A stretch of 64,000 nucleotides of DNA. Source: a bacterium (GTDB taxonomy: Bacteria > UBA8248). Under the pieces are notes generated by a model. It did not search any database. It saw nothing but the letters and a program-made list of their open reading frames with translations, and was not told where the DNA came from. Location: NCBI GenBank assembly GCA_965199855.1, contig OZ241326.1, positions 544,001 through 608,000 of the forward strand, given 5' to 3'. Positions within the stretch are counted from its first letter, which is position 1; every line of letters starts with the position of its first letter. This document shows positions 3,708-58,209 of this stretch, piece after piece. The position numbers were made by a program, and so were the translations under genes.

Positions 3708-4172
3708 TCAGAGCGGATGGTTCGGGTCGAGCATCCCCAGAAACGCGGCGCACCTCTCGGCTTCGGCGGATTCGCCGATGGCGGCGGCGCATTGCGCCAG
3801 CCCGTGGACGGCGCGCAGGAAGGGCCGGTTGGCGGGGATTTCCCAGGGGATGCGCCCGTCGCCGCGCCAGCCCGAGGCGCGCGCCTTGTCCAGCCCCCGG
3901 TGGTAGGCGACCCGGAAGAAGGCGTACGCCCCGATCGCGTCCTCGCCGGCGAGGGCGACGCGCCCCAGCGCCACCCAGCCGGAGAGGGCGTCGGGATGCC
4001 GCGCCGCCAGCGCCTTCAGCTTCTCCAGGGAGCGCTCGCGCTTCTCCCCGCCCGCCAGAACCTCGTCGCGCAGCCGATCCGCCGCGCCGAGCGCCTCCGG
4101 CTCGGGCGGAAGGGAGGCGCCGGGAATCGCGCCGGAGGCGATGTCGAGCAGGTCGTCCGCTTCGTCGGGCAT
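3708..4172 (-). CDS. DUF3151 family protein
   Basis: AYAFFRVAYHRGLDKARASGWRG.G.IPWE.PANRPFLRA signature; AAGGAGG RBS. Confidence 0.8.
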   Translation of the reverse strand: MPDEADDLLDIASGAIPGASLPPEPEALGAADRLRDEVLAGGEKRERSLEKLKALAARHPDALSGWVALGRVALAGEDAIGAYAFFRVAYHRGLDKARASGWRGDGRIPWEIPANRPFLRAVHGLAQCAAAIGESAEAERCAAFLGMLDPNHPL

Positions 4173-4267
4173 GGCGGCTTTCCTCCTTCGGAAGAGAGAA
4201 TTTCCGGCGGCATTATACCCCGAATCCGGCTGGATGGCTCCTCCCGCGGACGCCGCCGCGCCGGGGA

Positions 4268-4296
4268 TTGACGCCCCCGAATCGCTTTGCTAGCTT
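4268..4296 (+). promoter_or_regulatory. Sigma70-type promoter of glyA
   Basis: TTGACG-17 bp-TAGCTT with TG extended -10. Confidence 0.55.
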
Positions 4297-4361
4297 CTCG
4301 CCGCCCTGTGAATTTCCACCCGCTTCCCGCGCGCCTGAAAATCAAACGGAGGTCCCGCGAG

Positions 4362-5618
4362 ATGCCCTCAGCGCTTGAGCTCGCCGATCCCGACGTCTTC
4401 GCCGCCATGGAGAATGAAAAGCGGCGCCAGGCGGACGAGCTCGAACTCATCGCCTCGGAGAACTACGTGAGCCGGGCGGTGATGGAGGCGGCGGGCGGCG
4501 TGATGACCAACAAATACGCGGAGGGCCTGCCGGGGAAGCGCTACTACGGCGGCTGCCGGTTCGTGGACGCGGCGGAATCCCTCGCCATCGAGCGGGCGAA
4601 GGCGCTTTTCGGCGCGGATCACGCCTGCGTGCAGCCGCACAGCGGCGCCCAGGCGAACGCCGCGGTCTATTACGGCCTGATGGAGCCGGGCGACACCCTG
4701 CTGGGCATGAACCTCTCCCACGGGGGGCACCTCACCCACGGCCACCCCGTCACCTTCTCGGGCCGCTGGTTCAACGTGGTCGCCTACGGGGTGGACCCCG
4801 AGAACCACGTCATCGACTTCGGTGAGGTGGAGGCGCAGGCCAGGGCGCATCGGCCCAAGGTCATCGTCGCGGGGGCGAGCGCGTATCCGCGCTCGATGGA
4901 CTACGCGCGCTTCCGGGAGATCGCGGACGAGACGGGCGCCGTGGTGATGGCGGACGTCGCCCACGTAGCGGGGCTCATCGCGGGCGGGGCGCACCCCAGC
5001 CCGGCGGGCCACGCGCAGATCATCACCACCACGACGCACAAGACGCTGCGGGGCCCCCGCGGCGGCATGATTCTTTGCGACGAGGACTACGCGGCGCGGA
5101 TGAGCAAGGCCGTCTTCCCCGGGCTTCAGGGCGGGCCGCTCATGCACGTCATCGCGGCGAAGGCGGTGGCGCTCAGGGAGGCGGCCGCCCCCGGCTTCAG
5201 GGACTACGCGGCGCAGGTCGTGAAGAACGCGAAGGCGCTCGCGGCCGCGCTCCTTCGGCGCGGGGTTCATCTCGTGTCGGGCGGCACGGACAACCACCTG
5301 CTCCTGCTGGATCTGCGCGAGGCCGGCTTCAGCGGGAAGAAGGCGGAGGCCGCCCTGGGCCGGGCGGGGATCACGGTGAACAAGAACGCGATTCCCTACG
5401 ACGCGAGAAAGCCGGCGCTCACGAGCGGGATTCGCGTCGGGACGCCCGCGCTGACCTCGCGCGGCATGAAGGAGGCCGAGATGGAGGCGGTGGGCGGCTG
5501 GATGGCCGACGCGCTCGCCGACGTCGAGGACGAGTCGCGCATCGCCTCGGTGCGCGGGGACGTCCGCTCGCTTTGCGAAAAATTCCCGATGGGGCCGGAG
5601 GGCGCCAGACCGGAGTAG
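4362..5618 (+). CDS. glyA: Serine hydroxymethyltransferase
   Basis: [40 protein letters not shown]; GGAGG RBS before ATG 4362. Confidence 0.97.
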
Positions 5619-5632
5619 CGCGGCTCCCCGCC

Positions 5633-7045
5633 CTACGGGGGCGGCCTTTCCACTTTCGCGATTCCCGTCTTTTCCATCTGATGCGCGAGCGCCAGCGTCC
5701 GGTGATCCTCGAAGGGCGCGCCCATGATCTGCGCGCCGAGCGGCAGGCCCTCCGCGCTCATGCCGGCGGGAAGCGCCGTGGCCGGCCCCCCGAAGAAGTT
5801 CCAGAGCCTCGTCAGGGAGATCAGGAGCGCGCGGATTTCCACCTCCCTGCCCCGGACGACGGCGGACGAGGCGGAGCGCGGGGCGGCGGGAATCGGCGTG
5901 GCGGCGGAGAGGAGGAGGTCCGCCCGGCCGAAGACTTCCCTGTGGACGCGCCTCGCCCACTGCTCCCTGAATCTGAGCGCCTGGATATAGGAGGCGGCGG
6001 GGATGAAGAAGCCGGGCCGGATTCTCTCGATGACGCCCGGGTCGAAGTCCCCCGCTCTTTCCCGGACGTTCTTCTCGTGCGCGGCCGCGGCCTCCGAGAC
6101 CATCACCACGGACGCCGCGTGAAGCGCGCTTTCGACGTCGGGAATCTCGACGTCGAATACCCTGGCGCCCGCCTCCCCGAGCGCGCGGGCGAGCCTCTCC
6201 ACCGCCTCCGCCACGGAAGGCTCCGAGCGTCCCTCGTAGAAGGAGCGCGCGTGGCCGACGCGGAGTCCCTCGATGGGCGCGTTCAGCGCGCCCATGAAGT
6301 CGGGCGGCCCGCAGGGGACGGAGGAGGCGTCGTCCGGGTCGCGTCCGGCGACGGCGGACATCATCAGCGCGCAGTCCTCGGCGGATCGCGCCAGCGGCCC
6401 GAAGGAGTCGAGCGACCACGAGAGCGGCGCGCATTTCGATTTCGGGACGAGGCCGTGGGTGGGCTTGTGTCCGACCACGCCGCACAGCGACGCGGGAATG
6501 CGGATGGAGCCGCCCGTGTCGGAGCCGATGGCGATGGAGACCTGCCCCGTCGCCGCGCTGTTGCCCGAGCCGCCGCTCGAGCCGCCGCTCATCCGCTCCG
6601 CGTCCCAGGGGTTCTTCTGATCCCCGTAATGGGGGTTGCGTCCGGTGGGGCCGAAGGCGAACTCGTGCAGGTTCAGCTTGCCGAAAATCACGCCGCCGGC
6701 GCGGCGTATCCTCCGCGTCAGGGGGGCGTCGGAGTCCGCCGCGCCCTCCTTGTCGATGACGCCGCCCGCCGTCGTGGGCAGCCCTTCCGCGTCGATGAGG
6801 TCCTTCAGGCCGATCGGCGCGCCGGCCAGGGGTCCCGGGTCGCCGCCCCGCTCGACGGCGGCGTCCACCTCCCGCGCCGCCCGCATGGCGCCCTCCGCGT
6901 CGAGCGCGATCCAGGAGTTCAGCGCCTTCCCGACGCGCTCCGCGCGCTCCAGGTGCGCCTCGGCGACCCGGACGGCGGTGAACTTTCTTTCCCTGACGCC
7001 CGCGGCGATTCGCGCGGCGGTGAGGTTCGCGAGATCGCCGCTCAC
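5633..7045 (-). CDS. Amidase-signature family enzyme (GatA/AtzE-like)
   Basis: IGLKDLI, GGSSGGS, GSDTGGSIRIPAS (Lys-cisSer-Ser triad); likely GTG start at 7045. Confidence 0.9.
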   Translation of the reverse strand: MSGDLANLTAARIAAGVRERKFTAVRVAEAHLERAERVGKALNSWIALDAEGAMRAAREVDAAVERGGDPGPLAGAPIGLKDLIDAEGLPTTAGGVIDKEGAADSDAPLTRRIRRAGGVIFGKLNLHEFAFGPTGRNPHYGDQKNPWDAERMSGGSSGGSGNSAATGQVSIAIGSDTGGSIRIPASLCGVVGHKPTHGLVPKSKCAPLSWSLDSFGPLARSAEDCALMMSAVAGRDPDDASSVPCGPPDFMGALNAPIEGLRVGHARSFYEGRSEPSVAEAVERLARALGEAGARVFDVEIPDVESALHAASVVMVSEAAAAHEKNVRERAGDFDPGVIERIRPGFFIPAASYIQALRFREQWARRVHREVFGRADLLLSAATPIPAAPRSASSAVVRGREVEIRALLISLTRLWNFFGGPATALPAGMSAEGLPLGAQIMGAPFEDHRTLALAHQMEKTGIAKVERPPP

Positions 7046-7046
7046 C

Positions 7047-7247
7047 CTATTTCTCCCTCGCCAGGGAGCGCAGAAAGCCCGCGTGTCCGGCCGGCTCCGT
7101 CTGCGGGGAGAGCCGCTCCAGCAGCGCGGGGCGTCCGCGATCGAGGGCTTCGAGGGCGGCCGCGATGGCGGCGCGCCTCTCCGGGTCGAGCGCGTCTCCG
7201 AAGGCGTCGGCGCAACGGATCTTGAGGGCGTCGTCTGAAATCGCCAT
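7047..7247 (-). CDS. Small 66-aa protein coupled to amidase (AtzG/GatC-like partner?)
   Basis: GGGAGG RBS before ATG 7247; MAISDDALKIR...LERLSPQTEPAGHA; stop is 1 bp before the amidase start. Confidence 0.6.
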   Translation of the reverse strand: MAISDDALKIRCADAFGDALDPERRAAIAAALEALDRGRPALLERLSPQTEPAGHAGFLRSLAREK

Positions 7248-7453
7248 GGCGTCCTCCCGGAAAGCGCGGCGCGCGCTGAGGGGCGGCTCGTTCGTTCGCG
7301 GATGGACGCATGATGCTTCGTCTCGCCCGGCATTGCAATCGCGGACGCGAAGGCGGCGCGGGCTTTCGCTTCGCCCGCGGGCGGTTGCCTCCGCGCGGGC
7401 GCGGGGGCAAAATGCGGGGCGCGTCCTTTTCATCCGCCCCGCCGGAGGCGTCC

Positions 7454-8101
7454 GTGAGCAGATTCGCAGGGCCCCTTCTCATCGCCGCGCTCCTGCCCCT
7501 GTGGGCGGGGGGGTGCGTGCCCGTGGGCGTCATGGTCGCCAAGAAAACCCTGACCTCCGCTCTGGAGGATCGCTCCTTCGAGCAGGGGCTTGAAGACGCG
7601 AAAATACACGCGCATCTGCTGAAGGAGTATTTGCGGGTCGATAGCGGCCTGCCCGTGGACGTGAACACGGACGTGTGGGAGGGGCGGGCGCTGCTCACCG
7701 GCGCGGTGGACGCGGCGTGGAAGCGCGAGGCCGTCCTGCGCATCGCGCGCGGCGACCCGCGGATACGCGCCCTGTACGATCACATCCTCCTGGGTTCCGC
7801 GGACGGGGCGGAGCGCGGCCGCGCGGCGGCGGGGACGGCGCCGGCGGAGGAGCGCGACATCGTGAAAATCGGCCGAATCGCCGGCGATGCGTGGATAAAG
7901 GCCAAGCTCAAGGCGCAGTTTCTGGCGACGGAGGGCGTGCGCTCCGTGAACTACCGCTGGCAGTCCGCGCGAGGCAGGGTCTACATCATCGGCCGGGCGA
8001 GGACGGAGCAGGAGAAGAAGATCGTCCTCCAGATCATTCGCGGAACGAAGGGCGTCCTCCGCGTCCGCGAGTATATCGAGATAAAGCCGCCGCGGCGGTA
8101 G
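7454..8101 (+). CDS. BON-domain lipoprotein (DolP/OsmY-like)
   Basis: Lipobox-like WAGGC; two BON repeats (DAKI...GRALLTG; DAWIKAKLK...GRVYIIG). Confidence 0.8.
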   Translation: MSRFAGPLLIAALLPLWAGGCVPVGVMVAKKTLTSALEDRSFEQGLEDAKIHAHLLKEYLRVDSGLPVDVNTDVWEGRALLTGAVDAAWKREAVLRIARGDPRIRALYDHILLGSADGAERGRAAAGTAPAEERDIVKIGRIAGDAWIKAKLKAQFLATEGVRSVNYRWQSARGRVYIIGRARTEQEKKIVLQIIRGTKGVLRVREYIEIKPPRR

Positions 8102-8142
8102 GGCTTCCGAAAATTCTCCCCCCGGGTCCGGCTTCCGGATAG

Positions 8143-9157
8143 ATGATTCGCCTGAGCGTTCTGGATCAGTCCCCCGTCCGCGCGGGAGGGACGGCGGCGG
8201 AGGCCATCGGCGAGACCGTCCGGCTGGCGCGGGCGGCCGAGCGTCTGGGCTATCACCGCTACTGGCTGGCGGAGCACCACAGCCACGGGGCGTTCGCGGG
8301 CACCTCGCCCGAGGTGCTGATCGGCCGCATCGCCGCGGCGACGAGCCGCATTCGCGTGGGCTCGGGCGGGGTGATGCTCAGCCACTACAGCGCGCTCAAG
8401 GTGGCCGAATCCTTCCGGGTTCTGGAGACGCTCCACCCGGGCCGCATCGACCTGGGGCTGGGCCGCGCCCCCGGCGCGGACAGGCTCGCCTCCGCCGCCC
8501 CTGGCGGCCGCCCCGGGCGGCTTTCGCTACGATGATTTTCCGCAGAAGGTCTCCGACCTTCAGGGCTGGCTGGAGGGGCCGCTGCCGGAGGGCCACCCCT
8601 TCGCCCGCGTGCGCGCCATGCCCGACGGAGAGACGGCGCCCGAGGTGTGGCTTCTGGGAACCTCGGGTCAAAGCGCGATTCTCGCCGCGCGCTTCGGCTG
8701 CGCGTTTTCCTTCGCCCACTTCATCAGCGCGCGCGGCAGCGTTCAGGTGATGGACATGTATCGCAGGGATTTTCGCCCCTCCGCCCGATGGAAAGCCCCC
8801 GCGGGAAGCCTCGGCGTTTTCGTGATTTGCGCCCCGACCGAGGAGGAGGCGCTCTACCACGCGGCGAGTAGGCCCCTCGTGATGCTCAGGAGCCGCCGCG
8901 GCGAGGGAGGCGGCGTGCCCGCGCCCGAGGAGGCGCTCGCCTATCCGTGGACGGAAGCCGAGCGCGCCTTCGCGCGGGATATCGACAGCAGAACCATCGC
9001 GGGGGACCCCGATCAGGTCGAACGGGCGCTCCGGGAGCTGGCCTCCGCGCACGGGGTCGATGAGCTCGTCATCGTGAACGTGATGCACAGCTTCGAGGCG
9101 AGGCTCAAGTCCTACGAGCTTCTGGCGGAGGCGTTCGGACTGGGGGAAGCATCCTAG
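8143..9157 (+). pseudogene. LLM-class flavin-dependent oxidoreductase, frameshifted near 8500 (real or assembly error)
   Basis: LSVLDQSP, YWLAEHH, GRIDLGLGRAPG. Removing one C from CCCC at 8498-8501 joins 8143.. to the 8609..9157 frame. Confidence 0.8.
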
Positions 9158-9771: not shown

Positions 9772-9979
9772 ACGCGCGGGCGGGGAGCGGACGCCGGCAG
9801 GCTTCTTTTCTTCGGGGCGCTCGCGAGCGTCTCCCCCGCCCGGCCGTTCTCTCCCGCGCTCTCTCTCTCTGAGGGCCTCCCCCCGGCCTTCCCCCCGGGA
9901 TGCCGCGAACCCGGAAATGGGGTATGCTTGCGGGGATTCTACATTTTCGCGCGCGCGTTCAAGCGGGGAGCGCAAGCCT

Positions 9980-11185
9980 GTGAAGTTTTCCTTCTTCATG
10001 ATGCCGCTTCACCATCCCTCCGAGAATCCCTCGCTCGCCTACCAGCGCGACGTCTCGCTCATCGAATACGCGGACGCGCTCGATTTCGACGAGTTCTACA
10101 TCGGAGAGCACCATTCCGGCGGCTGGGAGACGATTCCCGCCCCGGAGATGGCGCTCGCCATGGCGGCCGCCCGCGCGCAGCGGATTCGTCTGGGCACCTC
10201 GGTGATCAGCCTCCCCTTTCACCACCCGTTTCACGTGGCGGAGCGGATGGCGTTTCTGGATCAGCTCACCCGGGGGCGCGTCATCCTGGGCGTGGGGCCG
10301 AGCAATCTGGCGAGCGACATCAAGCTGTTCGGCGTCCCGCCGGGGGACCTGCGCCCGATGATGCGCGAATCGGTGGACGTCATCGTCAGGCTGCTGGAGG
10401 CGCCCGAGCCGTTCGACTACGAGGGCCGGTTCTGGAAGCTGCGGGACGCGCGCCTCCAGGTGCGCTCCTACCAGAGCCCGAGAATGCCGCTCGCCATCGC
10501 CACGGCGGGAAGCCGGGGCGCGATCGAACTGGCCGCCGAATACGGGATGATTCTGCTCTCCCTGGGCGGCGGGAGAATCGGGGACAACCTCCCGCTCTCC
10601 GAGCAGTGGCCCTACATGGAGGAATGCGCGCGAAAGCGCGGGGCGCGGGTCTCGCGCGAGAACTGGAGAATCGCCACGCATGTGCATCTGGCCGAAAGCC
10701 GGGAGAAGGCCTGGGCTGAGGTCGAGGAAGCCGCCATGCGCGACATGGACTACTTCATGGACATCGGTCTCAAGCCCGCCTACGAGGCGCATCCGGATCA
10801 GCCGCGCTCGGAGATCACGCCGCGGATGGCCGCCGAGCGGCGCAGCTGGATCGTGGGCACGCCGGACGACGCCATCGAGACGATCGAGAAAATCCGGGAG
10901 GAGACGGGCGGCTTCGGCGGCCTCATGCTGACGACGCACGAATGGGCGGGCGATCAGAAGATCAGGGCGTCCCTCGAGTTGTTCGCCCGATACGTGATGC
11001 CGCACTTCAGAGGGCACACGCGGGATTTGAAGGCGGAATGGGGCAGGCTCCGGAAGGACGCGGCGGAGGGGAAGCTGCCCCCGCAGGGAGGGACGCCCTC
11101 CTGGGAGGCGCCCGGGTGGGAAGGACACAGGAGCAGTCTGTTCACCTATCCGCCCGAGCCCGGGGATTTCCCCAGGACGGATTAG
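9980..11185 (+). CDS. LLM-class flavin-dependent monooxygenase
   Basis: FFMMPLHHP, IGEHH, IRLGTSVISLPFHHP, LDQLTRGR; GTG start after GGGGAG. Confidence 0.88.
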   Translation: MKFSFFMMPLHHPSENPSLAYQRDVSLIEYADALDFDEFYIGEHHSGGWETIPAPEMALAMAAARAQRIRLGTSVISLPFHHPFHVAERMAFLDQLTRGRVILGVGPSNLASDIKLFGVPPGDLRPMMRESVDVIVRLLEAPEPFDYEGRFWKLRDARLQVRSYQSPRMPLAIATAGSRGAIELAAEYGMILLSLGGGRIGDNLPLSEQWPYMEECARKRGARVSRENWRIATHVHLAESREKAWAEVEEAAMRDMDYFMDIGLKPAYEAHPDQPRSEITPRMAAERRSWIVGTPDDAIETIEKIREETGGFGGLMLTTHEWAGDQKIRASLELFARYVMPHFRGHTRDLKAEWGRLRKDAAEGKLPPQGGTPSWEAPGWEGHRSSLFTYPPEPGDFPRTD

Positions 11186-11289
11186 GGCGGAGCGGGAGGC
11201 GGCCGCCCCGCGCCGGATGTGGTATCGTCGAAGCGGACGGGGCGGAGCGGCGCGCCCCTTGAGCCGCGCGAGGATGAGGGCCCCGGAAT

Positions 11290-12201
11290 ATGAGCGTTTC
11301 GTTTTCGGGCGAGGCTGTGGACGCGAAGGACGCCCTGCTCGTCGTGGCGTTCGCCGGATGGAACGACGCGGCGGAGTCCGCGACGATGGCGGCGCGCTAC
11401 CTCGTCCGGCGCTTTCGGGGGAGGCGGGTGGCGAGGATTCAGCCGGATGACTTTTTCCAGTTCTCGGATCACAGGCCCCTCGTCAGGATCGGCGAATCCG
11501 GCGAGCGGCGCATCGCGTGGCCGTCGAACGAGTTTTTCCACTGCCGGACGCCCGCGCGCGACCTGATCGTCGGAGTCGGGGTCGAACCCCACCTGAAATG
11601 GAAGCGCTTCGGCCGCGGCGTGTTGGAGGTAGGGAGTCGCTTCGGCGCGCGGATGATGGTGACGCTGGGCGCGCTGCTGGCGGGCGGACTGCACACCCAG
11701 CCCAGCCATCTGGTGGCCGTCGCCACCGACCCGGCGTTGCTCGCGCCCTCGGGCGTGGAGACGACGCGCTACGAGGGCCCCACGGGAATCGTGGGCGTCA
11801 TCCACGCGCTGATGCAGGACGAGGGGCTTCCCGCCGTGAGCCTGTGGGCGAACGTGCCGCACTACATCGCCTCCCTCTCCAACCCGAAGGCGGCGCGCGC
11901 CCTGCTGGAGAGCCTGGGCGCCGTGGGCGGCTTCGAGGTCTCCCTGGGGGACTTCGACGACGCCATCCGGGCGTTCGACGAGAAGGTGGAGAAGATGGTC
12001 GCCGGGGATCCCCGCATCGCCAAATACGTGGACGACGTTCAGAAGGGCCAGATCCCCGACGAGATTCCGGGGCTGGACTTCGACGACTCCCTCGAGCCGG
12101 AGCCCGACGAGCCGGAGGACTCTCTGCCCCCCGGCGACCAGGTGGCCGACGAGATAGAGCGTCTGATGAGGCGAAGGCCCGGCGGGCCGGAGCCGGATTG
12201 A
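11290..12201 (+). CDS. PAC2 (proteasome assembly chaperone) family protein
   Basis: AFAGWNDAAESA, GVEPHLKW, YEGPTGIVGV, SLWANVPHY. Confidence 0.85.
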   Translation: MSVSFSGEAVDAKDALLVVAFAGWNDAAESATMAARYLVRRFRGRRVARIQPDDFFQFSDHRPLVRIGESGERRIAWPSNEFFHCRTPARDLIVGVGVEPHLKWKRFGRGVLEVGSRFGARMMVTLGALLAGGLHTQPSHLVAVATDPALLAPSGVETTRYEGPTGIVGVIHALMQDEGLPAVSLWANVPHYIASLSNPKAARALLESLGAVGGFEVSLGDFDDAIRAFDEKVEKMVAGDPRIAKYVDDVQKGQIPDEIPGLDFDDSLEPEPDEPEDSLPPGDQVADEIERLMRRRPGGPEPD

Positions 12202-53777: not shown

Positions 53778-53982
53778 AGAGGTTCGAGTCGGAACGATGA
53801 AAATCCCGGTTAGTTCGTCAAAATGTCAAGAGCAATACATTCAGAAAGAAATTTTTAATGCCTGTGAATTGTCCAATCTGCCAAAAACATGTAAATTACA
53901 AGAAAAATTAGCAAATATATTGAATTTGGAGTATATTGCGACATGGCAAACGGTTTTTATTTCGTGGAAAAAGGAGGGCCAA

Positions 53983-54249
53983 ATGGAAAATTTCGATCAA
54001 AAAAATCCAAAAATTAAGTCGGGAGAATCGCCATCAAAGCGCGAAAAATTCATAGAACTAGCGGAGAAGCGGACCATCAACGCACTCAAAGCCATTCGGG
54101 TGCTCAGCAAGCTAGGAAATCGTAATGCCTATGATTACAACGACGCAGATGTCAAAAAGATTGTCAAAGCCCTCATAGATGAAATTGAAGCTTTGAAAGT
54201 GCGCATGAATAATACCAAGGGCTCTGATGGTATTGATTTCAAGCTCTAA
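53983..54249 (+). CDS. Small helical hypothetical protein (88 aa)
   Basis: AAGGAGG RBS; KREKFIELAEKRT.NA...I..L.KL.N...YDY...DV.KI. I recall this pattern from small ORFs leading RM/defence operons (unverified). Confidence 0.75.
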   Translation: MENFDQKNPKIKSGESPSKREKFIELAEKRTINALKAIRVLSKLGNRNAYDYNDADVKKIVKALIDEIEALKVRMNNTKGSDGIDFKL

Positions 54250-54269
54250 ATTTTAGGGATAGTAAAGGC

Positions 54270-56813
54270 ATGGAAGACAATTATAAATTGTGTCATGAGC
54301 TACTTTCTTGCGATAGCGAATCAGACGTTATTTTGCTCCTTAAAGAGAGGGGATATTGGGACAAACCGGAACTGTGGCGCTTTTACGGCGATGTTGAAAA
54401 CAATTGGGGGCAAAGCGGCAATCAGATGAAGTTGGCCGAAGTTGCCCTAGTGGAAAAAATTGTCAATTCTGTTGATGCTCGTCTTACCAATGAATGTCTT
54501 ATACGTGGGATCGATCCTGCTGGCCCTAATGCTCCGAAGTCGATCCAAGAAGCAGTCGCACGTTTTTTTGCTAATGGTACGGGGAGTCGGGTTGCAACTG
54601 GTGGCCTGATTGAAAATTGGGGTGATATTAAAATCCGAGAAGTTGCAGAGGGAATCACTTTTTGTGTCACGGGTGTCCGGCCTGAACAGCTTAGCATCAC
54701 GATTGCTGATTGTGGAGAAGGGCAGACGCCGAACCTCTTCCCTGATACGATTTTGTCCCTTAGTAAAAGCAACAAGATGTATATCCCCTTTGTCCAGGGG
54801 CAATTCAACCAGGGTGGGAGTGGCGTCCTTCGTTTTTGTGGAGAAAAGAATTTTCAACTTGTGGTTAGTAGGCGAAATCCTAAACTCCTAAAGAAGGATA
54901 GCACTGAGAGAGATCAACAGTGGGGTTTTACTATCGTGCGGCGAGAACGTCCTTCTGGGAGTCGAAAAATATCTAGATACACCTATCTTGCGCCAGTAGG
55001 GGCCGATACGGACAAAAATGCCCACAAGGGTCGAGTTTTGTCGTTTGAGGCCGAGAGCTTCCGAGTGTTTCCGAACGACGATGGGCCGTATTCACGCGAG
55101 GCTATTTATGGAACCGCCGTCAAGATGTTTGATTACCGGTATCTGGGTGAGAAATCGAACATTTTGCGAGGCAATAGTTTGCTCAGCCGTCTCGATCTTC
55201 GGTTGCCTAAGATTGCTTTGCCTGTCCGACTCTATGAATACAGAAAGAGTAAAAAGGGCGACTTCCTAGATGTTGGGAGCCGACGAACGACCCTCTCGGG
55301 CTTGCAACGCCGCTTGGTGGGAAATCCGAATGTCGAGAGGAATTTTCCGATTTCCATCCCCCTCTATCTTGAGGGGGAGGAATTCATTGTGCACATCTTT
55401 GTATTTAGGCTAGAGGGAGCAACTAACGAGAAAAACGGGAAAAACAAAAATGCAAAATCTAAGAAGCGCGGCGGCTCGAGAAGTTATCGTAGGCGGGAAG
55501 GTGTAGTCTTCGTGCAAAATGGTCAGACTCAGGGCGATTTGCCAAAGGATTTCTTCCGGCGTGATGCGGTAAAGATGAAATCTATCGCTGATGATCTTCT
55601 GGTCTTTGTCGAATGTGATGGGTTGAGCGACGTTGCTCGTGAAGATTTGTTTATGTCGAGTCGAGATCGCCTCGTCGAGAGTGCCTTCAAACAATCTTTG
55701 GTTGCCCGTTTAGAGCAAAGCATCCGCGATTGTCAGGAATTAAGGGATCTCCGAAATCAAAGACAGCAAGAGCGGATGAGCGAGCACGTGAAAGAGGAGC
55801 AACCATTTGTTGATGTGTTGCAATCGTTGATGAAAAATTCACCGAACCTCAAAACGCTACTTCAGTTGGGAGGTCGGATATCGGCATCCTTTGATACTCG
55901 ACCAACCGGTTCCGACAAAAAGAAAGAATTCAAGGGAGAGTTCTATCCGAATTATTTTAAGACCAAGGGAGTTGAATACGGAGTTACGTTTAAGCGTCTA
56001 TGTCCCATCAATCGAAGTATGCGGCTTATTTTCGAGACTGACGCACGGGACGATTACTTTACTCGCTCGGCAGAGCGCGGGGTTTTCACGCCGACCTGGA
56101 TCGCTAAGGACGGTAAAAAGCGGAAGGTTAGCTTAAGTGGCCCGAGGCTCAAGAGTGGTATTGCAACTGTCATGCTGGATCTGCCGGATGATGTGACCGT
56201 AGGCGATGACATCGAGTTCATCGCGCTTGTGAATGATACACTCAGTGAGTTCGAAAATCGCACCGTAGTGAGCGTGAAGCCCAAGACAAAGATTAAAGAC
56301 AATCCTTCTGGTTCTTCCAAGTCCCCCAGACGGCCTGGTCCGGAGGATGGCAAGCGGCGAGAACAACCTTTGGCGCTTTCTCCACCTAGGATCAAACGCG
56401 TTTATCGAAAAGAATGGGATAACGAAGGCTTCGATGCGTTTACCGCTATGAAGGTAGAGCACCTTTCTTACCTTGAAGATGAAGAAGCGGAACTCTACAT
56501 CTTCAAGGTGAATATGGACAATGCCCCTCTCGAAAACGAAGCTAAGCAAAAACGCCTGGATAGCAATCAGTACAACCTACTTCGTCAACAATTTCTTTAT
56601 GCGAATGTTCTGATAGGTCTCTCGCTTCTGCTTGATGAGAAACAAAACAAACCACAGAAAGAAGCAGAAGGGGAGGTCCTTCAAGAGAGTGTCGAAGAAC
56701 GCATCAACAGTATGTGTCGTGCACTGGCGCCTTTCCTACCTGCTCTTATTTCTCTCCGGACGGAAGATATTCAGGCTGACGATCAGTTTGAGGGTTTAGA
56801 GGAGGCTGTATAG
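54270..56813 (+). CDS. Large GHKL/MORC-like ATPase-domain protein
   Basis: N-box EKIVNSVDA, G1 IADCGEG, G2 QGQFNQGGSG, G3 GTAVKM; 847 aa. Confidence 0.72.
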   Translation: MEDNYKLCHELLSCDSESDVILLLKERGYWDKPELWRFYGDVENNWGQSGNQMKLAEVALVEKIVNSVDARLTNECLIRGIDPAGPNAPKSIQEAVARFFANGTGSRVATGGLIENWGDIKIREVAEGITFCVTGVRPEQLSITIADCGEGQTPNLFPDTILSLSKSNKMYIPFVQGQFNQGGSGVLRFCGEKNFQLVVSRRNPKLLKKDSTERDQQWGFTIVRRERPSGSRKISRYTYLAPVGADTDKNAHKGRVLSFEAESFRVFPNDDGPYSREAIYGTAVKMFDYRYLGEKSNILRGNSLLSRLDLRLPKIALPVRLYEYRKSKKGDFLDVGSRRTTLSGLQRRLVGNPNVERNFPISIPLYLEGEEFIVHIFVFRLEGATNEKNGKNKNAKSKKRGGSRSYRRREGVVFVQNGQTQGDLPKDFFRRDAVKMKSIADDLLVFVECDGLSDVAREDLFMSSRDRLVESAFKQSLVARLEQSIRDCQELRDLRNQRQQERMSEHVKEEQPFVDVLQSLMKNSPNLKTLLQLGGRISASFDTRPTGSDKKKEFKGEFYPNYFKTKGVEYGVTFKRLCPINRSMRLIFETDARDDYFTRSAERGVFTPTWIAKDGKKRKVSLSGPRLKSGIATVMLDLPDDVTVGDDIEFIALVNDTLSEFENRTVVSVKPKTKIKDNPSGSSKSPRRPGPEDGKRREQPLALSPPRIKRVYRKEWDNEGFDAFTAMKVEHLSYLEDEEAELYIFKVNMDNAPLENEAKQKRLDSNQYNLLRQQFLYANVLIGLSLLLDEKQNKPQKEAEGEVLQESVEERINSMCRALAPFLPALISLRTEDIQADDQFEGLEEAV

Positions 56814-56815
56814 CT

Positions 56816-58042
56816 TCATCTTATTCGGTGGATCAAAACAACCTCTCGTGCGCCGGGAGAGCGTGATTTTTGTTGAGCGTGCCATTTCCGGTTGGGCACA
56901 TTGCGCCAAAGGCGGCCGTCGCCCGTTTGGATGTTCCAGGGCAATTCCTCGCGCAATCCGCAATGTTCCATAACTTTAAGGTATTGAGGGAGTTGCCAGG
57001 CCGCTTCTGAAAACGCGACCATCTGAACTATGGTTGTTTCTTGACCGGCTATCCGCGCTACGGACTTAAAAGATGCTTCCAAGTTGTCAAAGTACGATCT
57101 TAGTTTTGGATTTTTTCTGTCTCCCATTGTGTAATAGGATGACCCAAATCCATCAAGTGTGCCTGTGATCCAGAACGGTGCGGGCGTTTCACGCCGACCA
57201 TCCACTTGCCATCGGTGATAGATAACGTGGATACCAGGATAAGGCGGCGAAGTGATAATGAGCTTCGGGGGAGATATGCGTTTTACAATGCTTTCAGTTT
57301 CTGCTCCGACAATGCTCCTATTTAAGCAGATTACCCGCGGTTGCGGGAAATTGTCCGCTCTATTGATTTTCACACGAAATGTTAAAGTGTCCTCTAGCAT
57401 CGTTTTAGCTAAGCGATGAAGTTCCCTGCGAAAGCGGGGAATTGAAGGGCGAATCTTTCGGGCGTCAAGTGCCCATTGGGCCGTGCGCAGCACAGTGCAA
57501 CGGGCTAAGGTTTGCGCTCCCTTGCATCGAAGTTTTTGCACCGAAGCTAGGCATTGCTCAATCGCCTTGCGGAATCGCCAGGACGACCGATCTTCGAGGT
57601 TCTTGTAATAGCCTGCATCGGCATAATTCTCAAAATAGAAGCTAGGTGCGTGCATGTTCACGGTGCTTGATAGGCGATTCATCCACCGTCGGAATTCTTT
57701 GACATCCCGATCAGTCAAGATGAGCGTTTTCGCTTTGCAAACAAACTTGGCTAGCGAACTAATATCAATACCGAGCGCGTTGCGCCCCGAGGCTACAGCT
57801 TCGACTAGCGTAGTGCCGCCCCCGACGAAGGGATCAATAATCCAGTCTCCTGGTTCTGAAAACACCTCGATTACTCTCCTCGCGAAGACAGGTGAAAATC
57901 TGGCGGGGTAGCGATAGAAATTGTGAGTCAGGCCCGTTATTCGTTTAGGACATCGCGCCGCTAGGATGATTTTCTCAAGATTTGCTTGGATGCATTCGGA
58001 TTCTGGATCAAATTTGTTCATTCTTTCCTTTCGTTTGCTCAA
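56816..58042 (-). CDS. Amino (likely N4-cytosine) DNA methyltransferase, alpha motif order
   Basis: THNFYRYPARF (X), DPFVGGGTT (I), ITSPPY (IV); alternative ATG at 58021. Confidence 0.85.
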   Translation of the reverse strand: MSKRKERMNKFDPESECIQANLEKIILAARCPKRITGLTHNFYRYPARFSPVFARRVIEVFSEPGDWIIDPFVGGGTTLVEAVASGRNALGIDISSLAKFVCKAKTLILTDRDVKEFRRWMNRLSSTVNMHAPSFYFENYADAGYYKNLEDRSSWRFRKAIEQCLASVQKLRCKGAQTLARCTVLRTAQWALDARKIRPSIPRFRRELHRLAKTMLEDTLTFRVKINRADNFPQPRVICLNRSIVGAETESIVKRISPPKLIITSPPYPGIHVIYHRWQVDGRRETPAPFWITGTLDGFGSSYYTMGDRKNPKLRSYFDNLEASFKSVARIAGQETTIVQMVAFSEAAWQLPQYLKVMEHCGLREELPWNIQTGDGRLWRNVPNRKWHAQQKSRSPGAREVVLIHRIR

Positions 58043-58209
58043 CGATAGCGGGAGATGAGCCTATCCCTTTTTGAAGCGACCCTAGGCTAGTAGAGTTCGC
58101 TTTTACTTTCGATTATTAAAGCCTCACAGCAATTCCTCATAAATCCTTTTCATGTCGGCCGCTGGAATGCGGCGCGGCTTTCCGCGTCATTTTTCACCGG
58201 ACGCGGCGC

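Follow-up and report, generated by a model that had tools for sequence, protein, structure and literature searches.

The low-GC island and its genes

The DNA considered here, referred to as the window, is a stretch of 64,000 nucleotides (positions 544,001 to 608,000 of the forward strand of contig OZ241326.1, assembly GCA_965199855.1) from a bacterium of the lineage UBA8248. At positions 53778-58190 of the window lies an island with a guanine-plus-cytosine (GC) content of 47.2%, whereas its left and right flanks have 69.5% and 70.4%, respectively. The island holds three genes only, encoding an 88-amino acid (aa) helical protein, an 847-aa protein and, convergent with the latter, an amino-methyltransferase, and it is this three-gene cassette that forms the subject of the analysis. 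Its main features are as follows.

53778-58190, no strand: low-GC island with the three-gene cassette, delimited by composition and by presence or absence in congeners
53890-53900, plus strand: TGTAAATTACA, in which the heptamer TAAATTA is conserved; candidate for an operator or other cis element in front of the small gene
53908-53937, plus strand: candidate sigma-70-like promoter TTAGCA-18-TATATT, 8 nt after the box, by consensus match only
53983-54249, plus strand: gene for the 88-aa helical protein (class-A partner, as defined below), with ribosome-binding site (RBS) AGGAGG at 53972-53977 and ATG at 53983
54270-56813, plus strand: gene for the 847-aa GHL (GHKL plus transducer) ATPase
56816-58021, minus strand: DNA amino-methyltransferase gene; the product has 401 aa if started at the ATG at 58021 and 408 aa if started at an upstream TTG

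The small gene and the 847-aa gene share a strand and are separated by a gap of 20 bp (54250-54269), while the stop codons of the ATPase gene (TAG, 56811-56813) and the methyltransferase gene (TGA, 56816-56818, minus strand) lie 2 bp apart. The small open reading frame (ORF) called by program is longer, encoding 150 aa (53797-54249); the 88-aa reading is considered correct because AGGAGG sits before the ATG at 53983 and because conservation in relatives is confined to the last ~70-88 residues. The 62-codon N-terminal extension (53797-53982) is unconserved in relatives and overlaps both the TAAATTA box and the promoter-like site, and it is thus most likely untranslated leader or promoter DNA. 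Terminator-like hairpins are found where the convergent genes meet (56802-56817) and at the island's right-hand edge (58171-58188). The promoter and terminator scan returned no more matches than did shuffled sequences, and these sites are accordingly candidates only; likewise, a search of the island flanks for direct or inverted repeats that might serve as att sites gave only short matches of a kind that often arises by chance. A first-pass annotation, made from the sequence alone, had described a low-GC island with exactly three genes, an 88-aa ORF with a strong RBS 20 bp before the 847-aa ORF, four Bergerat boxes, DPFxGxGTT and TSPPY motifs, and stop codons 2 bp apart; the base composition, the RBS and the translations bear out this description in full.

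The GHL ATPase and its methylase

The assignments for the N-terminal half of the 847-aa protein and for the methyltransferase are listed below, with the motifs being read from the translated sequences.

54390-55679, plus strand: Bergerat ATP-binding domain and transducer (S5-like) domain, residues 41-470
54453-54479, plus strand: Bergerat motif ExxxNxxDA (EKIVNSVDA)
54708-54722, plus strand: Bergerat motif DxGxG (DCGEG)
54798-54818, plus strand: glycine-rich ATP lid GQFNQGG
55110-55124, plus strand: GT-containing motif GTAV(K)
57809-57835, minus strand: methyltransferase motif I, DPFVGGGTT
57239-57253, minus strand: methyltransferase motif IV, TSPPY

No model of Pfam, NCBIfam, PADLOC or PHROGs matched the 847-aa protein (E 0.1 or 0.01), and a search of PDB sequences yielded only a chance Fab match (E 0.61) when the single protein was used and nothing at E 10 with a profile. 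A first full-length AlphaFold2 model, built with 27 close homologues, had a predicted local distance difference test (pLDDT) score of 58.6 and a disordered N-terminal half, and was used for the C-terminal half only. Residues 1-470 were modelled with an alignment of 136 sequences (30-71% identity) gathered by searching 1.84 billion representatives with a profile, giving a pLDDT of 93.9 and a predicted template modelling (pTM) score of 0.94. Foldseek matched this model to the GyrB 43K fragment, ParE and Hsp90 at E values of 1e-11 to 1e-9, and the alignments to Hsp90 N+M, MutL LN40, MORC2/3/4, SMCHD1 and Topo VI-B all span residues 41-470. With all four motifs and the Bergerat alpha/beta sandwich fold present, the protein is a member of the GHKL superfamily, and the second alpha/beta domain of the predicted structure, with its invariant R325, assigns it to the GHL subgroup. 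It had been annotated earlier as a GHKL/MORC-like ATPase; the model and the Foldseek matches uphold the GHKL fold, and the presence of both a Bergerat and a transducer domain makes it a GHL ATPase, not specifically a MORC protein.

Within the alignment of 136 sequences, N66, D69, D147, G151, K169, G177, G182 and R325 are invariant and E62, G149, G281 and K285 are conserved in at least 90%; this retention of the ATP-binding residues argues for a predicted active enzyme, in which R325 of the transducer domain presumably contacts ATP. The same domain has basic, low-complexity loops. The MORC S5 motif GhXhhpXXRhl was not evident in the protein by eye, no formal search having been made. PF13589 (HATPase_c_3) does not match the window protein even at E 0.1; sub-threshold matches to it occur at equivalent positions in 9 of 60 distant members, one distant plasmid homologue clears the Pfam cut-off (26.1 bits), and in neighbour clusters of the ESM Atlas 26-30% of members carry it.

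The methyltransferase matches PF01555 (3.7e-14) and PADLOC MTase_II (2.8e-17), and has the alpha-type motif order, with motif I followed after ~185 residues by motif IV. The (T/A)SPPY motif is kept in all 88 methylase homologues compared (88/88). To judge from its sequence, the enzyme is a DNA amino-methyltransferase with intact S-adenosylmethionine (SAM)-binding and (T/A)SPPY catalytic motifs, and by family matches and motifs it would serve as the site-specific DNA methyltransferase expected of a Type II restriction-modification (RM) system. TSPPY and the best PDB matches, which cover the SAM motif alone, lean towards a product of N4-methylcytosine (m4C) over N6-methyladenine (m6A). Of the earlier label N4-methyltransferase, the amino-methyltransferase part has the family match behind it, and 'N4' is drawn from the TSPPY motif only.

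The family to which the ATPase belongs is very large, comprising 1624 proteins at E <= 0.001 among 7999 candidates scored in 90% clusters; at 50% identity it numbers 2522 clusters, of which 860 have E <= 1e-30. All of its members are unnamed, and they are found in bacteria and on archaeal plasmids. Species-representative genomes contributed 33 loci, the hosts being Nitrospirales, Oceanobacillus, Cyanobacteria, Phycisphaeraceae, Phototrophicaceae, and many Alphaproteobacteria and Gammaproteobacteria; a methylase homologue was present in 31 of the 33, as was a homologue of the small protein (31/33). Metagenomes contributed 80 further loci, viral sequences 7 and plasmids 3. Loci were considered assessable if their 3' end was complete and followed by 400 bp or more of downstream sequence; 90 remained once 33 had been excluded and the locus of the window itself removed. 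A methylase homologue was identified in 86 of the 90 assessable loci. It lies within 200 bp downstream of the ATPase gene in 79, and is convergent with it in 76 of those; the four loci that lack it are the most distant relatives (24-33% identity). With the methylase homologue so widely retained and so often convergent, the ATPase-methylase pair constitutes the invariant core of the cassette, and the occurrence of an identical gene order in many phyla argues that the arrangement is not due to chance. The identities of the ATPase and methylase to the copies in the window co-vary (r = 0.87, n = 79), and co-inheritance of the two across phyla is shown by these comparisons at the level of sequence.

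Within the class of the host, the cassette is carried by 6 of 51 genomes. At the syntenic site in 13 congeneric genomes (G000 included), it is present in G000 and G008 only and absent from the other 11; in both relatives inspected (G001 and G007), the site holds 1.4-1.7 kb of host-like DNA. Comparison of G008 with the window at this site gave identities of 67% for the ATPase, 73% for the methylase and 74-81% for the flanking genes. Given the foreign GC content, the patchy presence, the spread of hosts over several phyla and the mobile-element neighbours described below, the island is a horizontally acquired, mobile element. G008 has a second cassette, which is divergent (37%) and located elsewhere in the genome (the two are at C10:2275666 and C10:2501506; L137 and L142).

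A tight, mobile pairing of methylase and effector with co-varying divergence, foreign composition and patchy distribution is typical of RM modules, and it is on these grounds that the cassette is read as a module of the RM type. As no other gene is conserved, the effector, or at least its core, must be the GHL ATPase. A role in defence is plausible, and the island is judged, with modest confidence, to be probably a mobile, methylation-linked and ATP-dependent RM-like cassette of the GHKL/paraMORC kind, in which the ATPase acts as effector.

Upstream partners, the TAAATTA box and gene neighbourhoods

The gene directly upstream of the ATPase gene, on the same strand, varies among the loci and was used to define classes of the upstream slot.

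Class A (the type of the window), 47 loci: ~85-aa helical protein
Class B, 20 loci: ~380-aa protein with a winged-helix-like C-terminus
Class C, 11 loci: ~210-aa protein
Class D, 8 loci: ~190-aa protein with HARE-HTH (PF05066, 1.5e-8 to 4e-7)
Class F, 4 loci: protein with Mrr_N (2.6e-11)
Class G, 2 loci: HTH_17 in one of the two
Class PIN, 5 loci: PIN-domain protein

The small protein of class A belongs to no family in Pfam, NCBIfam, PADLOC, PHROGs or the Atlas, and its invariant residues are F23, A27, R30, R39, N46, Y50, D56, I60, F86 and L88. A search seeded from it in the 51 genomes of the host's class gave seven matches, each of which precedes a GHL gene (7/7), which suggests that, in its subfamily, the small protein is an obligate partner. 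No similarity among classes A, B, C, D, F and G was detected by hhalign (all probabilities <=2%). The possibility that the small protein corresponds to an N-terminal module of the longer upstream partners was also considered and found to be unsupported by hhalign (<=2%). Fused forms were not found among proteins of 1484-4235 aa, which is weak evidence, and a complex prediction for the small protein with the ATPase (score 0.00) gave no verdict and counts neither way. The three genes had been proposed to form a conserved trio; that holds for the ATPase-methylase pair (86/90 loci), whereas the small protein is confined to one subfamily and its place is taken in sister clades by winged-helix proteins.

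A scan of 29 upstream proteins revealed no nuclease family other than in the PIN proteins, which may be merely adjacent toxin-antitoxin genes, and in one further locus, L018, of a metagenome-assembled genome of the Rhodobacteraceae. At the latter (3988-8523), the small-protein gene (3988-4197) and the GHL gene (6001-) are separated by an ORF for a NotI-like restriction endonuclease (PF12183, 8.7e-39; 5141-5968), which looks like a second RM element nested within the cassette. This locus is relevant to a rival explanation in which the ATPase functions as a MutL-like matchmaker, sensing unmethylated sites and activating a nuclease that is encoded elsewhere or varies with the host, as MutL does with MutH or Vsr. 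The same analogy has been drawn for MORC and paraMORC proteins in the available portion of Iyer, Abhiman and Aravind (2008; PMC2292703), and the endonuclease gene inside the L018 cassette would fit with it. No nuclease gene is conserved beside the cassette, however, and a dependence on host-specific partners is hard to reconcile with a cassette that moves among at least six phyla as a self-contained unit of two or three genes; a matchmaker function is therefore regarded as rather unlikely.

TAAATTA occurs once in the 64-kb window. Of 42 distinct class-A loci, 30 have the heptamer or its complement 83-159 nt ahead of the small gene's conserved K19 codon, whereas dinucleotide shuffles gave 4.1 on average and never more than 9; the count of 30 overstates independence, given that the class-A loci are mutually related. 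The heptamer was found in 5 of 34 loci of other classes, in none of 32 regions upstream of the methylase, and in coding sequence twice within 122 kb, while the intergenic DNA around the box in class-A loci is otherwise divergent. The box is thus read as a candidate operator from its sequence context, and this favours a controller-like role for the small protein, despite the lack of a match to a helix-turn-helix (HTH). No recognizable HTH was found in the small protein, the sole Pfam match at E 0.1 being a weak, HepT-like one (0.078). A covarying palindrome or hairpin around the heptamer was sought and rejected, complementarity of the flanks being seen in 85 of 190 pairs, where controls averaged 72.7 and reached at most 96.

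Neighbourhoods were surveyed in 30 loci, taking the two closest ORFs on either side of the cassette (118 ORFs). Mobile-element or defence families are present among these four neighbours in about half of the loci, including integrases or resolvases (L007, L017, L021, L058 and L094), transposases (L019 and L023) and ArdC (L024). The remainder, again about half, are neighbourhoods of housekeeping genes, a finding that counts against the RM-like reading and in favour of a rival in which the cassette has no part in defence, with an orphan-like, epigenetic methylase and a GHL ATPase acting as accessory chaperone or regulator of the methylase or of chromosome structure, together forming a selfish or regulatory element. 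Against such a role stand the patchy distribution (6 of the 51 genomes in the class and 2 of 13 congeners at the site), the foreign base composition, the frequency of integrases and known defence systems as neighbours, and the convergent, tightly packed methylase with its co-varying divergence, a pattern typical of RM loci; it is considered very improbable.

Individual neighbourhoods provided further observations. Hachiman (HamA and helicase; L003:10209-13713), Thoeris (SIR2-STALD ThsA and the TIR protein ThsB; L120:11885-13908) and AbiV-HEPN with SIR2_2 (L017) directly adjoin their respective cassettes. The cassette of L058 is flanked by inovirus-like replication (REP_ORF2-G2P) and Zot-family assembly genes and a serine recombinase (9895-11788), which suggests that it is carried on or beside a filamentous phage-like element. 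Three relatives of 24-30% identity on plasmids of Ensifer and Hymenobacter (L034, L035 and L115) adjoin genes for a PAPS-reductase (DndC-like), a large ATP-binding protein, SIR2 and DUF262, and the upstream gene of L115 is DndB-like (5.7e-18); these may reflect a link to sulfur-type DNA modification modules, or mere clustering in defence islands. A distant homologue on a Halogeometricum plasmid adjoins another methylase. On a viral contig (L121:4786-9031), a 595-aa canonical HATPase_c_3 protein (3.8e-19) is encoded directly upstream of a family member with 33% identity, placing two GHKL proteins in tandem. Finally, L029:2620-5163 encodes, on the opposite strand just upstream of the cassette, an 848-aa protein with HATPase_c_3 and a C-terminal HATPase_c, the architecture of the HEF_HK/paraMORC-like proteins (PMC8011034).

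Proposed mode of action and relation to known systems

The features of the C-terminal half of the ATPase (residues 471-847), the first of which derives from the secondary structure of the full-length model (moderate confidence) and the last from that model and the alignment, are listed below.

55683-55868, plus strand: long helices, predicted coiled coil, residues 472-533
55938-56291, plus strand: Ig-like beta-sandwich with a conserved FETDAxxDYFxR stretch, residues 557-674
56367-56810, plus strand: small beta unit and helical C-terminal region with NMDN (748-751), residues 700-847

In the mechanism proposed for the RM-like cassette, the methylase would mark host DNA, probably as m4C, and the ATPase would act as the effector, with ATP binding leading to dimerization through an N-terminal strap as in Hsp90, MutL, MORC and Topo VI-B. 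The dimer would close on DNA that lacks the methyl mark, whereupon the C-terminal half would cut the unmarked DNA or disable it in some other way, by analogy with the restriction enzyme R.HgiDII discussed below; this half has the coiled coil, Ig-like sandwich and helical end and, as invariant acidic and polar residues, D591, D656, N748 and N751. The 88-aa protein would be a subfamily-specific third component, occupying the slot held by HARE-HTH, Mrr_N and other winged-helix proteins in sister clades. Most likely it would serve as a controller-type DNA-binding regulator at the TAAATTA box, so that expression of the ATPase would lag behind entry into a new host; a function as adaptor subunit is thought to be less likely.

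A number of observations weigh against this reading, in addition to the housekeeping neighbourhoods. The proposed controller function is weakened by the mutual relatedness of the class-A loci, the absence of a recognizable HTH and the rejected palindrome. Searches of residues 471-847 brought to light neither a nuclease fold nor a nuclease motif: Foldseek and VIA-wide gave Ig-like matches only (from the full-length model of moderate quality, with residues 700-847 hardly covered), and the profile search of PDB sequences was empty. The earlier statement that no nuclease motif is seen in the C-terminal part agrees with these searches, within the same limit on the last ~150 residues. The conserved C-terminal residues of the 136-sequence alignment (T590, D591, Y596, F597, R599, D656, N748 and N751) include no His or Lys and hence match none of the classical nuclease signatures. 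Finally, neither a phage-defence or cleavage experiment on any family member nor a paper describing the family was found among the open-access papers searched.

The apparent lack of a nuclease fold or classical signature in any part is also an argument for restriction without cleavage, in which an ATP-gated GHL clamp would entrap or compact unmethylated incoming DNA and so block its replication or transcription, as eukaryotic MORC proteins do with chromatin, while the upstream partner helps to load the clamp or to read the modification state. The progression from GHL module to coiled coil to beta-sandwich, the basic, low-complexity loops of the transducer domain, and the occurrence of DNA-binding winged-helix proteins (HARE-HTH and Mrr_N) with no Pfam nuclease match among the variable partners would each suit a clamp. 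Against it, we know of no prokaryotic example of nuclease-free clamp restriction, and the C-terminal half was modelled with only moderate confidence. Moreover, an undetected nuclease is weak evidence, restriction nucleases being notoriously hard to recognize, as noted in the accessible text of Orlowski and Bujnicki (2008; PMC2441816). Restriction by a nuclease-free clamp is accordingly viewed as unlikely. A broader form of the idea, that a MORC/Hsp90-type clamp guided by interchangeable small DNA-binding partners topologically entraps and silences unmarked DNA, and is the prokaryotic counterpart and possible ancestor of eukaryotic MORC silencing, is likewise offered as a speculation with little probability.

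The family merits attention as it is very large yet has neither a name nor a domain model, and the three-gene cassette is a compact test case for the role of GHKL ATPases in RM loci. Were the C-terminal half to cut DNA, it would represent a restriction nuclease of new fold, switched by ATP and possibly useful as an enzyme; otherwise, the cassette would be the first clamping restriction system, with a bearing on the origin of eukaryotic MORC silencing. The exchange of upstream partners between clades, together with the TAAATTA box, would provide a handle on the regulation or targeting of such systems.

With regard to named systems, no family among the 5027 models of PADLOC-DB v2.0.0 matched the ATPase or the small protein at E 0.1, and the methylase matched only the generic MTase_II. 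In Type II RM systems with a controller (C) protein, such as PvuII and Esp1396I, a small gene encoding an Xre-type HTH protein lies upstream, the methylase is convergent and a conserved box is present. The window cassette resembles these in having a small co-oriented gene directly upstream of the putative restriction gene, a convergent methylase and a conserved, here candidate, box in front. It differs from them in that the 88-aa protein has no HTH match, Xre-type or other, whereas C proteins are of the Xre type, and in that the TAAATTA box lacks a significant extended dyad. The MutL-MutH/Vsr systems involve MutS together with a separate nuclease or a C-terminal endonuclease domain of MutL itself, none of which is present or conserved in the window cassette.

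PADLOC includes a model for Tiamat, and the window ATPase has no PADLOC match of any kind at E 0.1. Tiamat, as described in the available part of its report (bioRxiv 10.64898/2026.09.30.754977), is a GHL ATPase with a DUF3684 core and a C-terminal PD-(D/E)xK nuclease, neither of which was found in the window protein. There is a likeness in the use of a single large GHL ATPase in defence, a putative role in the window family, in the swapping of the effector domain in relatives and in the presence of some neighbouring methyltransferases; in Tiamat loci, however, and unlike in the window family, the methylase is described in that part as co-occurring only with a helicase.

Parallels are also provided by the MORC and paraMORC1-5 ATPases, which occur in RM loci and for which DNA looping or clamping coupled to nucleases has been proposed (Iyer, Abhiman and Aravind, 2008; PMC2292703, in the sections available). 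These ATPases share with the window family a GHKL and S5/transducer module, a sporadic, laterally mobile distribution and a linkage to DNA methylases, and paraMORC1 and paraMORC5 have uncharacterized C-terminal extensions, as does the window ATPase. Most MORC/paraMORC loci also encode superfamily II helicases (~70%) and recognizable nucleases, according to the same sections, and neither is conserved in the window family.

The R.HgiDII group offers a precedent for the RM-like reading. R.HgiDII has been confirmed as a Type IIP enzyme; its N-terminus is of the GHKL type and its C-terminus matches no known fold. Four more REBASE subfamilies with a GHKL N-terminus (VeiORF1182P, NmeAIP, EcoUTORF4938P and LweSORF291P) are named in the accessible text of the same study (Orlowski and Bujnicki, 2008; PMC2441816). 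A GHKL protein in which no nuclease is visible can thus be the cutting subunit. As compared by description, the R.HgiDII group and the window cassette have in common the N-terminal GHKL module, a C-terminal region in which no known nuclease fold was found and an adjacent methyltransferase. M.HgiDII is a 5-methylcytosine (5mC) methylase according to the part of PMC5867850 available, as opposed to the predicted alpha-type amino-methyltransferase with TSPPY of the window, and the small partner of the window cassette has no counterpart mentioned for the R.HgiDII group in the accessible text of PMC2441816.

The first-pass annotation had presented the cassette as an undescribed defence system. Its two unknown proteins do remain without a match in PADLOC, Pfam, NCBIfam or PHROGs, but systems of this kind are already in print in the R.HgiDII group (PMC2441816) and the paraMORC proteins (PMC2292703), insofar as these sources were available. 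What appears to be new is a very large, unnamed family of GHL-ATPase/methylase cassettes with a modular DNA-binding partner and a candidate operator, although the paraMORC lists of PMC2292703 may include some of its members. On comparison by description with the available accounts, the window family would be set apart from most R.HgiDII-type and paraMORC systems by its lack of a helicase or recognizable nuclease, its alpha-type amino-methyltransferase and its swappable upstream partner.

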